DNA of 64,000 bases from Gemmatimonadota bacterium (GTDB taxonomy: Bacteria; Gemmatimonadota; Gemmatimonadetes; Longimicrobiales; Gaopeijiaceae), in the NCBI GenBank assembly GCA_039589315.1, contig JBDHHQ010000002.1, positions 61,018-125,017 on the forward strand. Direction: 5' to 3'. Position numbers and translations under genes: made by a program. The number at the start of each line of letters is the position of its first letter. Position 1 is the first letter of the stretch. The notes beneath the pieces were generated by a model. That model saw nothing but the letters and a program-made list of their open reading frames with translations. It did not search any database and had not been told where the DNA came from. Positions 50,083 through 53,751 of this stretch are shown piece after piece.

Positions 50083-51534
50083 CTACCGAGGGATCCGTTC
50101 CCACACCTCCAGAACGCCCATCTCGTGCCGGATGCTTCGGGCCAACCGGTAGTGCCGGCGCAGGTGGACGTCCACCGGGTTGTCCAAGGTGTGTCCGTAT
50201 CGCTCCATCATCGCGTAGTCGGCGATGACGTAGGGCGTCTGTCGCTCTGCCAGGATCGCCACGTTGCGTTCGAAGTGCTCGGTCGGGTGGCTCCCGGTGT
50301 ACAGGACGGAGTTGTAGAACGGGTTCGGCGTCTCCAGCTCGAGGTAGAAGCTTGGGAGGAGGGTGAAGGCATAGAACTCCTGGCCTCCCAGGACCGACTC
50401 CATCTCCTGGAGCCACTCACGCGCGACGCGGGAGTCGGCGGCGTTGCGCGTCACGATGCGTGCGACTCCCATCAGAAGTGCCACGGAAAACAGGCCCACG
50501 AGGGCACGGCGCCACCCCGGTGCTGGGAAGCGCTCCAGCGATCGGGCCGCGAGTCGGCCCAGGAGCAGCACCAGAGGAAAGGCGTTGATCGAGAGGTGCC
50601 AAGTGTCGGGAAGGTGGAAGGTCGAGCCCCACAGCGCCGCTTGCAGCAGCAACAGGACCGCCGTCGCGCGGTCCCACAGCCCCTCCCGGTAGCACGCCAC
50701 CGCTACCAGCGCAGCCACGGTCACGAACGCGACGAGCGGCCAATAGGACAGGGACAGGTGGTTCATGGCCAGATTGCCCCGGGCCACGGTGAGGAGCGAG
50801 GAGACGGGACCGAATCCCCACCGCCACAGCCCCCACAGCCCCACCACGGCCGCGCCCGCGCCGAAACGGAGCAGGAGCGCCCCGGCTTCACGCCCCCCGG
50901 AGGTCGCGGCGCCAGGTCCCGACCCAAGACCCTCCCGCCCCGACCAGGCTCGCGAGGCCAGGACCAGGACGCCCAGCACCAGAAGCAGCGCGCCCTTGGG
51001 CTGGAGGAAGAAGAACGTGAGGCCGGCCACGGCTCCGGCGGCGAAAGCCGTCCAACTGCCTCGGCGCCCGTCGGTGGAAAGCAGGAGGTACGTGAGGAGC
51101 GTCGCTAGGTAGCTGCCGTAGCTGTTGTGGTTGATGAAAGGCGGCGTCGTCGCCAGGAGGAGCCACACGAGCGATACGGCGAGCCGCACGGAGGCGTTGG
51201 GAATCAACAGACGAGCGGTCTGGTAAAAAGCCCAGATTGAAAGCAGAAGCATGAGCTGCGACGCGACCAGCGCCGCCGCGTACGTGGGCGCGAGGCTCTT
51301 GAAGAACAGGTTGACCCAGGAGAAGGATGCCGGACTGATGAACTCGAAGAAGTCTTCGTAGATCCGACGGCCGTTGTACAGATTCCAGGCGCCGGTGAGC
51401 ACCTGGCCTTCATCCGCGCTGAGCCTGTGGGTGAGCGTCAGTGCCACGCCACCCGCGAAGAGGAGGAGGACGACCCAGCGGTCTCCCCGGTCGGCTTGCT
51501 GGACGGCGTTCTCCGCCGTTGGCGTCCGGTGCAT
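50083..51534 (-). CDS. Polytopic membrane protein, probable GT-C (ArnT/PMT-like) glycosyltransferase
   Basis: First loop ADEG...GRRIYEDFFEFISP is typical of GT-C enzymes; about 11-12 TM helices. Confidence 0.6.
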   Translation of the reverse strand: MHRTPTAENAVQQADRGDRWVVLLLFAGGVALTLTHRLSADEGQVLTGAWNLYNGRRIYEDFFEFISPASFSWVNLFFKSLAPTYAAALVASQLMLLLSIWAFYQTARLLIPNASVRLAVSLVWLLLATTPPFINHNSYGSYLATLLTYLLLSTDGRRGSWTAFAAGAVAGLTFFFLQPKGALLLVLGVLVLASRAWSGREGLGSGPGAATSGGREAGALLLRFGAGAAVVGLWGLWRWGFGPVSSLLTVARGNLAMNHLSLSYWPLVAFVTVAALVAVACYREGLWDRATAVLLLLQAALWGSTFHLPDTWHLSINAFPLVLLLGRLAARSLERFPAPGWRRALVGLFSVALLMGVARIVTRNAADSRVAREWLQEMESVLGGQEFYAFTLLPSFYLELETPNPFYNSVLYTGSHPTEHFERNVAILAERQTPYVIADYAMMERYGHTLDNPVDVHLRRHYRLARSIRHEMGVLEVWERIPR

Positions 51535-51677
51535 ACGTCGCTGGAGGGTGAGGCGGGCACCGAGTCGGCGCCGGGGCATCCAACACTACGCGACCTCCGG
51601 ATACGACAGCAACCCCTCCGCGCGGGCCTCGCTGCGCGAGAGGACGACGTCGAAGGGGGCTAAGGTCCCACGAGCCC

Positions 51678-52661
51678 TCAGGCCGCTCCGACCCGCACCC
51701 TCGAGCGCACGGCACGCAACTCGGCTTCCAGATAGTCCACGAGCCGCTCGAACGGATCGAATCCCACGACCCGGGGTGCGTCGGCTACGAAGTTGGAGAG
51801 AGCGTTCACGTCGTAGAAGTAGATCCGGCCGTCCCGCTCGCTCTCCAGGTACTCCACCCCTCCGATCTCCATCCCGGCCGCCCTCACGATCTGGAGCACG
51901 GTCCGCCGAATGTCGTCGGGGGGCTCGTAGCCTTGAGCCGGGGCGGTCGTCGGGCACGCCGACAGGCCTCCGACCTCCCCAGCTCCGGTCTGGCAGAGGT
52001 CGGCCGGGCAGAGATTGAAGTCGTCGCCGGAGGCGTCCACCCGGATGGCGTAGAGGAACCGTCCGTCCAGCACCTCCACTCGCGTGATCCGGCCACCCTC
52101 CGGTCGATGGTACTCCTGGATCAGGAGCGTGCCGTCGAGGGAGGGCTCGATCCGGTCCTGAGACACGGCCCGGAGTAGCTCGCTGGTGTCGTCGAACCTG
52201 CTGATGCCCGCTCCGCTTCCCCCCACGTTGGGCTTCACCACCACCGGAAAGCGCAGCCCTTCTGTCGCCTGCCGTAGGCGGATCGGGTCGTGCACGACCC
52301 GCGTTCGCGGATGGGGGACGCCCAGGCGCCGGAGCAGCGCGAGTTGGCGGACCTTCGACACCTCGTACTGGAACGCCTCGAGGCCGTTGATCACGCGCAC
52401 GCCGCGCTCCTCGAGGTGCCGGAGATACTCCGGCGTGTGCCGGATCGCCTGCTCCCCGCCGCGCAGGTGGGCAGAGGGGCTCATGCGGTTGAACACCACC
52501 TCGTAGGGCCAGGTCGACCCGACCTCGAGATCCAACACCTCGTCGCCGGGCTGCACCGCCTCATACGGCACGCCACGGCGGTCCAGCGCCCTGAAGAGGG
52601 GCGTGAACCACTCCGGATGCTCGTGGTAGACGGCGATTCCACGGGCGTTCGATCTCATCAT
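51678..52661 (-). CDS. RimK/GshB-like ATP-grasp ligase (YHEHPEW / LCPADxC subfamily)
   Basis: VVKPNVGGSGAGI, LIQEYH, GVEYL and YDVNALSNF. AAAGGTGG RBS before ATG 52661. Confidence 0.85.
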   Translation of the reverse strand: MMRSNARGIAVYHEHPEWFTPLFRALDRRGVPYEAVQPGDEVLDLEVGSTWPYEVVFNRMSPSAHLRGGEQAIRHTPEYLRHLEERGVRVINGLEAFQYEVSKVRQLALLRRLGVPHPRTRVVHDPIRLRQATEGLRFPVVVKPNVGGSGAGISRFDDTSELLRAVSQDRIEPSLDGTLLIQEYHRPEGGRITRVEVLDGRFLYAIRVDASGDDFNLCPADLCQTGAGEVGGLSACPTTAPAQGYEPPDDIRRTVLQIVRAAGMEIGGVEYLESERDGRIYFYDVNALSNFVADAPRVVGFDPFERLVDYLEAELRAVRSRVRVGAA

Positions 52662-52745
52662 GCCCACCTTTCGTGTCTTGGCTACCTCTCGCATCGAGCC
52701 GGCGGCCCCGTCGTCGCCGAAGGCCGAAAACGCCGCCAACGACAG

Positions 52746-52777
52746 CGGCCGCGACCCCGGGATGGGAGTCGCGGCCG
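52746..52777 (-). terminator. GC-rich 13-bp hairpin between the leader ORF and the ATP-grasp gene (candidate attenuator terminator)
   Basis: On the minus strand CGGCCGCGACTCC-CATCCC-GGGGTCGCGGCCG, with one G.U pair, followed by CTGTCGTT (weak U-tract). Confidence 0.65.
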
Positions 52778-52817
52778 TTTCGTCGGTCCGCCGGCGGTGC
52801 TCGCGTGGCTCAGGCCA

Positions 52818-52904
52818 TCATCGGTATCCGCTCGTCTCCCGTCCCTCGCTCGGGTGGGGTCGACAACAGCGACAACAACAGATGGCCAGACCTGAATCGG
52901 TCAC
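52818..52904 (-). CDS. Poly-cysteine leader peptide MTDSGLAICCCRCCRPHPSEGRETSGYR (28 aa)
   Basis: GGAGAG SD 6 nt before the GTG. TGT TGT TGT CGC TGT TGT run, TGA at 52818-52820. Too short for the supplied ORF track. Confidence 0.7.
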   Translation of the reverse strand: MTDSGLAICCCRCCRPHPSEGRETSGYR

Positions 52905-53001
52905 GAGCGACTCTCCAGAGAACACCGATGTGCGCAGGCGACTACCCGTGCGCCTCCAGTGCCGGAACCCCGGAGCACGGCCAGAGGTTCCCATGAGCGC
53001 C

Positions 53002-53751
53002 TCAACCCCCGCCCCGGAACGCCGAGACGAGCAGGTCGCGGTTCAGTTGGGCGATGTAGTCCACGCTGATCCCCTTCGGGCACGCGTTCTGGCAAGCGCC
53101 ATGATTCGTGCAGCTCCCGAAGCCTTCGGCGTCGTGGGTGTTGATCATGCTCCCCACCCGGTCGTAACGCTCCGGCTGCCCTTGGGGCAGCAGTCCCAGG
53201 TGGGTGATCTTGGCGGCCGTGAACAGCATGGCCGAGGCGTTCGGGCACGCCGCGACGCATGCCCCGCAGCCGATGCATGCGGCGGCGTCGAACGCGATCT
53301 CCGCGGCGCCCTTGTTCACTGGGATGGCGTTGGCGTCGGGAGCGCTCCCGGCCCGCACGGAGATGTATCCGCCCGCCTCGATGATCCGGTCGAACCCGTT
53401 CCGGTCCACCACCAGGTCACGGATGATCGGAAACCCGGTCGCCCGCCACGGCTCGATCCACACCTCGTCGCCGTCCTGGAACGCCCGCATGTGGAGTTGG
53501 CAGGTGGTCGTCAGGGACTTGGGTCCGTGGGGTACGCCGTTGATCATCATCCCGCACGCCCCGCAAATGCCCTCCCGGCAATCGTGGTCGAACTCGATGG
53601 GCACGCCGCCACCACCGACGATGCGCTCGTTCACCACGTCCAGCATCTCCAGGAAGGACTGATCGGGGCTGACATCGTCGGCCTTATGCGTCTCGAAACG
53701 GCCCCCTTCTGCCGGTCCGGCCTGCCGCCAGACGTGCAGCGTCAAGCGCAT
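53002..53751 (-). CDS. sdhB: Succinate dehydrogenase/fumarate reductase iron-sulfur subunit
   Basis: [22 protein letters not shown] and [12 protein letters not shown]. Confidence 0.95.

Follow-up and report, generated by a model that had tools for sequence, protein, structure and literature searches.

What controls the ATP-grasp ligase gene that follows sdhB on the minus strand of this Gemmatimonadota genome? The intergenic gap between the two genes houses a leader ORF and a hairpin, which the initial annotation read as a ribosome-mediated, cysteine-sensing attenuator. We compared this locus, in a 64,000-nucleotide window (the whole stretch of DNA analysed) of the source genome G000, with relatives from genomes and metagenomes. 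The window copy very probably belongs to a family of transcription attenuators that work through a leader peptide in the manner of trp and respond to charged tRNA-Cys.

A leader ORF with a run of TGT codons

The window copy carries clustered codons for one amino acid in a short leader ORF. This ORF (52904-52818, minus strand) begins with GTG, spans 28 codons and is translated as VTDSGLAICCCRCCRPHPSEGRETSGYR*. The elements of the locus are as follows.

53002-53751, minus strand: sdhB, which closes the upstream sdhCAB run; genomic context and a possible source of read-through
52911-52916, minus strand: leader Shine-Dalgarno sequence GGAGAG; G001, a genome of the same genus, retains its GGAG core
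52818-52904, minus strand: leader ORF, 28 codons, GTG start; start, stop and frame are the same in G001, with no indel and 71/87 nt identical
52863-52880, minus strand: putative sensor run of six codons (CCCRCC), five of them TGT; three Cys here in G001
52852-52866, minus strand: segment 1, the predicted protector arm, pairing with segment 2 when ribosome-free (1:2 hairpin, -14.4 kcal/mol)
52826-52845, minus strand: segment 2, the predicted antiterminator strand, pairing with the terminator 5' arm and loop
52746-52777, minus strand: core terminator-type hairpin (3:4), 13 bp, -27.8 kcal/mol, 40 nt after the leader stop
52736-52786, minus strand: extended hairpin, -34.5 kcal/mol, with an outer stem of ~7 bp in place of the family U-tract
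51678-52661, minus strand: ATP-grasp ligase, 327 aa, RimK/LysX fold, with the invariant motif LCPADxC; the putative regulated gene

Several of these elements had already been described in the initial annotation, and they hold up. The leader ORF, its Shine-Dalgarno sequence and its five TGT codons lie where it had placed them, as does the 13-bp hairpin (52777-52746) about 40 nt past the stop. It had also called TGT the disfavored cysteine codon, rightly: TGT makes up 22.8% of Cys codons genome-wide, counted over 2,774 long ORFs picked by a compositional filter. Because of this low share, five TGT codons out of five are improbable by chance (p about 6e-4). The annotation overlooked an extension of the stem, in which 52786-52780 pairs with 52742-52736, and the lack of a U-tract behind the hairpin.

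The leader precedes most ATP-grasp relatives

Cysteine leaders are a widespread feature of loci encoding this ligase. We assembled 183 ATP-grasp loci, comprising the best 80 of 403 from GTDB, 23 from 61 related genomes (G000 among them) and the best 80 of 360 from metagenomes; the three sets overlap and hold close kin. Our caller looked for a short ORF with a usable start and at least 3 Cys in a stretch of 12 codons, followed by a GC hairpin and a T-rich tail; its thresholds were chosen after the loci had been inspected and were relaxed once. Leader, GC hairpin and U-rich tail were called in 137/170 scorable loci (56/78 from GTDB, 20/22 from related genomes, 61/70 from metagenomes), the other 13 loci having too little upstream DNA to score. 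Control calls numbered 1/600 in random windows of the source genome and 0/170 on reverse strands. A first, stricter caller gave 68/101 loci against 0/101, 1/409 and 1/600 in controls, and several loci missed by the caller have a leader on visual inspection. Thus the cysteine-rich short ORFs with covarying hairpins that the initial annotation expected upstream of orthologous genes are there, and their occurrence in 137/170 loci supports its candidate attenuator.

The family spans two main phyla and has a regular layout. Among GTDB loci, calls came from Gemmatimonadota (40/50), Acidobacteriota (15/22) and Eisenbacteria (1/2), with 0/6 elsewhere. A T run of at least 4 follows the hairpin in 119/137 family members; a weak tail like that of the window (at most 2) occurs in 7/137. 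Where an SsuE-like gene comes first, the leader lies ~700 nt upstream, ahead of that gene, so its position follows the transcription unit instead of the ligase coding start. In 94/125 leaders the 110 nt that precede the first Cys codon contain a -10-like hexamer, mostly 20-39 nt from that codon, compared with 36/549 coding windows. Family leaders also favor TGT, which accounts for 181/304 of their Cys codons and 26/218 of those in their ATP-grasp genes. The arrangement behind sdhB is found at four loci.

Methionine codons often accompany the cysteines. A Met codon lies in or near the Cys run in 54/70 leaders, and none does in the window copy. Many leaders, including those at L003, L016, L080 and L086, alternate Cys and Met codons, a pattern that hints that the two sulfur amino acids are sensed together. 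At L022 a Cys leader with terminator stands ahead of a different gene, ~1.7 kb upstream of the ATP-grasp gene.

Covariation and modelled geometry of the proposed switch

We infer leader translation, ribosome stalling, termination and a cysteine response in the following order. When cysteine is scarce, the ribosome would stall on the TGT run and cover segment 1. Segment 2 would then pair with the emerging 5' arm of the hairpin and block the terminator, and RNA polymerase would continue into the ATP-grasp gene. In relatives, read-through would reach an organosulfur-scavenging operon of the form [ssuE]-ATP-grasp-sfnG-like. With ample cysteine, the ribosome would proceed to the stop codon and cover segment 2, the hairpin would form and transcription would end.

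The leader and the terminator arm covary across the family. The terminator 5' arm falls into four sequence types, and the leader bears the matching complement, a comparison from which one chance call (L066) was excluded. A MAFFT alignment of 53 leaders shows three blocks that are out of register across terminator types; for this reason we compared duplexes by permutation instead of counting base pairs on the alignment. Using 65 non-redundant leaders (dereplicated at 80% similarity), we found a mean leader:arm duplex energy of -20.3 kcal/mol for native pairs and -17.6 kcal/mol for non-native pairs. Permutation, whether global or within type, never did as well as the native pairing in 10,000 trials of each kind, a significance that is overstated because the loci are related. 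The effect per sequence is modest: the native arm ranks first for 7/65 leaders and in the top tenth for 24/65. The window copy has the duplex too, with the leader stretch 52840-52828 pairing with the terminator 5' arm at -19.0 kcal/mol, a pairing already proposed in the initial annotation.

The spacing of the elements agrees with a stalled-ribosome switch. The first Cys codon and the start of segment 2 are separated by a median of 33 nt, and by 18 nt or more in 64/65 leaders; pairing of segments 1 and 2 is predicted in 54/65 non-redundant leaders. The segment 2 motif is spread over all three reading frames (15/20/28), so the constraint falls on the RNA and not on the peptide. The initial annotation had also assigned a partner to CGACCCC (52862-52856), just after the Cys run, namely the 3' arm of the hairpin. 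That complementarity is present in the window but is lost in G001 and beats shuffled sequences in just 36/123 leaders, and we reject it as a family feature. The segment after the Cys run is instead, as judged from these comparisons, the protector arm of a 1:2 hairpin.

Folding models place the alternative structures in the order that the mechanism calls for. We modelled the ribosome by masking 12 nt from the A-site codon. Mean pairing probability of the 5' arm fell from 0.74-0.77 for a ribosome at either of the first two Cys codons to 0.35 for one at the stop codon. Pairing was greater at Cys than at the stop in 120/125 leaders, a result that is partly trivial because hiding more sequence lowers pairing. 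Without a ribosome, arm pairing was predicted in 96/125 leaders. Masked folding, the approach proposed at the outset, thus favors the Cys stall in nearly all leaders, but the contrast is small in the window copy (0.84 at Cys, 0.55 at the stop). In folding models of the full-length window copy, every state favors the terminator hairpin at equilibrium; any switching must therefore be kinetic and co-transcriptional.

A derived copy in the window

The switch looks selected in the genus of the window. Its core (segments 1-2, spacer and hairpin) is identical to G001 at 112/126 nt (89%), and its flanks are identical at 102/160 nt (64%; difference p 1e-6). Identity within the core is 39/45 nt for segments 1-2, 27/31 nt for the spacer and 46/50 nt for the extended hairpin region. 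By comparison, codon positions 1, 2 and 3 of the ATP-grasp gene are 89, 92 and 72% identical. Core identity above that of flanks and third positions, together with an ORF free of indels, is the ground on which we consider the switch to be under selection in both genomes.

The window copy departs from the family in its tail. No U-tract follows the hairpin, where the longest T run is 2 and a terminator scan gave 0 sites; the hairpin tail of G001 likewise lacks one. A consensus scan of 51400-53300 for promoters and terminators had no matches. A TAnnnT hexamer is absent from the 125 nt that precede the Cys run in G000, and G001 has one -10-like hexamer. In G000 the distance from sdhB to the leader is 97 nt, a stretch in which no consensus terminator occurs. 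Rfam returned no gathering-score match in the window or in eight related loci. With its U-tract missing, the window copy is better classed as a derived family member than as an intrinsic attenuator of the textbook kind. With the U-tract decayed in both genomes, termination at the hairpin is probably weak or factor-assisted.

Such losses raise the prospect that the copy is a decayed relic. On that account, loss of the monooxygenase partner described below was followed by erosion of the U-tract and promoter, transcripts running on from sdhCAB supply the ligase, and the hairpin now serves as a 3'-end stabilizer or processing site. The missing U-tract and -10 hexamer fit this account, as do the partner gene not found in the G000 and G001 assemblies, the two window Cys codons that are Arg in the three-Cys leader of G001, and the lack of any other terminator consensus after sdhB. 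A 3'-end role would concern the hairpin, whereas segments 1-2 and the spacer are conserved besides it. The start signals of the leader (Shine-Dalgarno sequence and GTG) are also retained in both genomes along with its stop and frame, and all five Cys codons of the window copy are TGT. We regard a relic as possible but rather doubtful, and give a real cysteine response from the window copy, as a derived attenuator, somewhat better than even chances.

Relation to known leader-peptide systems

The family resembles classical attenuators in its parts and differs from them in its signal and targets. Like trpL, hisL, thrL and leuL (10.1101/834739, PMC1262725), it combines a short leader bearing a run of sensor codons with alternative 1:2, 2:3 and 3:4 helices; most members have an intrinsic terminator, and in the family context the downstream genes are tied to amino-acid supply. 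It differs in its probable sensing of cysteine, its occurrence in Gemmatimonadota and Acidobacteriota, its putative control of scavenging genes plus an uncharacterized ligase, and the lack of an Rfam match; the window copy also lacks a U-tract.

Closer precedents for the cysteine signal act differently. A 2020 preprint (10.1101/834739) calls cysteine uORF attenuation undescribed and then demonstrates a translational form in mycobacteria. Like the family under our proposed mechanism, these Ms5788A polycysteine sORFs (10.1101/834739; PMC13096801) stall ribosomes at a Cys run and occur in several copies per genome before sulfur genes. They are, however, leaderless, mask a Shine-Dalgarno sequence and act on translation, whereas the window leader is itself led by a Shine-Dalgarno sequence and its family is built on a terminator and antiterminator. 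Cys-run leaders before cys operons have also been predicted in Actinobacteria (PMC1262725). There, no conserved terminator hairpin was found and Rho was suggested; here hairpin and antiterminator are conserved and covary.

Could the window copy nonetheless work by translational attenuation, with leader RNA masking the downstream ribosome-binding site and a stalled ribosome freeing it, as for Ms5788A? A hairpin without a U-tract makes an output other than termination plausible, and the preprint cited above provides the precedent (10.1101/834739). Yet the ATP-grasp Shine-Dalgarno sequence (about 52672-52665) is unpaired with the leader in minimum-energy folds, and the folds of the window copy contain no pairing of the Cys tract with the downstream Shine-Dalgarno sequence of the mycobacterial kind. 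That site also lies ~65 nt beyond the hairpin in a poorly conserved stretch (48/75 nt), and the trailing U runs of family hairpins argue for termination. We consider translational attenuation very unlikely. The comparative evidence indicates that the family most likely acts through an intrinsic terminator, in trp-like fashion, and not through mycobacterial Shine-Dalgarno masking.

A terminator-based cysteine form in two abundant, mostly uncultured soil phyla would extend leader-peptide control past the model groups. Full-text literature searches, with subscription papers and supplements largely outside their reach, gave no terminator-based cysteine attenuator in these phyla and no function for the ligase; earlier predictions of Cys terminators may exist in attenuation surveys outside that search. 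What appears new is the ATP-grasp target, present wherever the monooxygenase occurs, and the U-less variant.

An ATP-grasp ligase linked to sulfur scavenging

The putatively regulated operons pair the ligase with relatives of sulfur-releasing enzymes. A flavin monooxygenase, SfnG/SsuD-like, follows the ligase in 155/173 scorable loci; 67/183 loci have an SsuE-like reductase ahead of the ligase. Among the 61 related genomes, 18 have the monooxygenase, directly behind the ligase in 18/18 cases, and 5/23 loci have the ligase without it, one of them at a contig end. No orthologue was found in the G000 and G001 assemblies (95% and 94% complete). The monooxygenase scores below the cut-offs for both SfnG (237-266 bits against a TIGR04021 cut-off of 383, 4/4 proteins) and SsuD (165-189 against 518 bits). 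A cysteine synthase gene lies inside loci L008, L013 and L087, in L013 downstream of the monooxygenase; L013 has no visible leader, and L087 retains the terminator with just two Cys codons.

The ligase belongs to a large family of RimK-like enzymes. At least 7,933 of 8,000 scored candidates were relatives, and an Atlas search returned RimK-type clusters only. The predicted structure (pLDDT 82.9) has the RimK/LysX/ArgX fold, with TM about 0.7 at about 20% identity, and sequence and fold searches of the PDB gave no closer solved relative. Across 19 aligned sequences LCPADxC is invariant. The motif occupies residues 217-223, and a nearly invariant third Cys follows at residue 236, in a low-confidence loop of the model. 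This Cys is missing in G001, and around it the window ligase is about 15 residues shorter than most homologues. LCPADxC and the third Cys form a possible metal or thiol site, as judged from the model.

ArgX and LysX, the best fold matches, have structures solved in complex with the carrier LysW; another match is PsnB, a ligase that modifies precursors. These matches favor a role for the leader peptide itself, as a graspetide- or LysW-like precursor or carrier for the ATP-grasp enzyme or as a small metal-binding thiol peptide. The peptides speak against it: only Cys is conserved, the distance from first Cys to stop ranges over 16-36 aa, Glu is the last residue in 3/125 and 103/125 are net basic. 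The conserved nucleotide motif, as noted, is read in all three frames, and the same leader also precedes genes other than ATP-grasp. We judge a functional peptide extremely unlikely.

As a probable cysteine sensor, the leader links a large ATP-grasp family, labelled "hypothetical" or "alpha-L-glutamate ligase", to sulfur scavenging. Known two-component flavin monooxygenases that free sulfur include SsuE/SsuD, SfnG and those of B. subtilis S-alkylcysteine salvage, in which the amino acid is N-acylated (N-acetylated) before oxidation (PMC10863075). In the loci studied here the constant partner is an ATP-grasp ligase and not an acetyltransferase. By analogy, the ligase might acylate a sulfur amino-acid derivative before oxidation. 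We tentatively suggest, and would not put it higher, that a cysteine regulon in two phyla points to the ligase as the enzyme that commits substrates to an undescribed route of organosulfur salvage, in which the ligase acylates and the monooxygenase cleaves. In the window genus, the ligase alone would remain under a U-less attenuator that switches via the extended hairpin or factor-assisted termination. The leader gives a testable order of steps for the ligase and its monooxygenase partner.

Homologues also occur on plasmids. The Spirosoma homologue adjoins amino-acid permeases and a monooxygenase, the Pediococcus homologue adjoins a thioredoxin-domain protein and a dicarboxylate/amino-acid symporter, and the Bacillus homologue stands alone. 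No Cys leader was evident before these three. In the window, the ligase gene is followed by a 498-aa membrane-protein-like ORF (50083-51579, minus strand), which has no Pfam or NCBIfam match and is syntenic in G001 at 74% identity.

Further probable attenuators in the source genome

The Cys leader offers an easily scanned tag for sulfur-starvation genes. Our caller returned 14 matches in G000, among them two further clear attenuators, and the other 11 look like chance calls. The second attenuator (C74:37000-37092, plus strand; L111:3001-3093) has a strong antiterminator (-27.0 kcal/mol) and a good U-tract. It precedes genes for a cysteine synthase, a JAB protein and a ThiS-ThiF-rhodanese fusion (ThiS/MoeZ), a set that we take to resemble the sulfur-carrier route to cysteine.

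The tRNA complement of the assembly was surveyed with ARAGORN. It called a tRNA-Cys(ACA) with a poor cloverleaf, probably a false call, and a tRNA-Sec (C18:55313-55400 and C139:9486-9582); tRNA-Cys(GCA), tRNA-His and tRNA-Tyr were not found in the G000 assembly.

The third attenuator (C177:9168-9329, plus strand; L112:3169-3330) has a good U-tract and stands ahead of a DUF1684 gene. By eye, no Cys leader with terminator occurs at 13 DUF1684 loci of other genomes (one without upstream DNA) or at the G000 paralogue. Because the link to the leader is not conserved, we do not claim DUF1684 as a sulfur gene. The hairpin at C177 is of a type common before ATP-grasp operons, and this attenuator may be left over from a lost operon.
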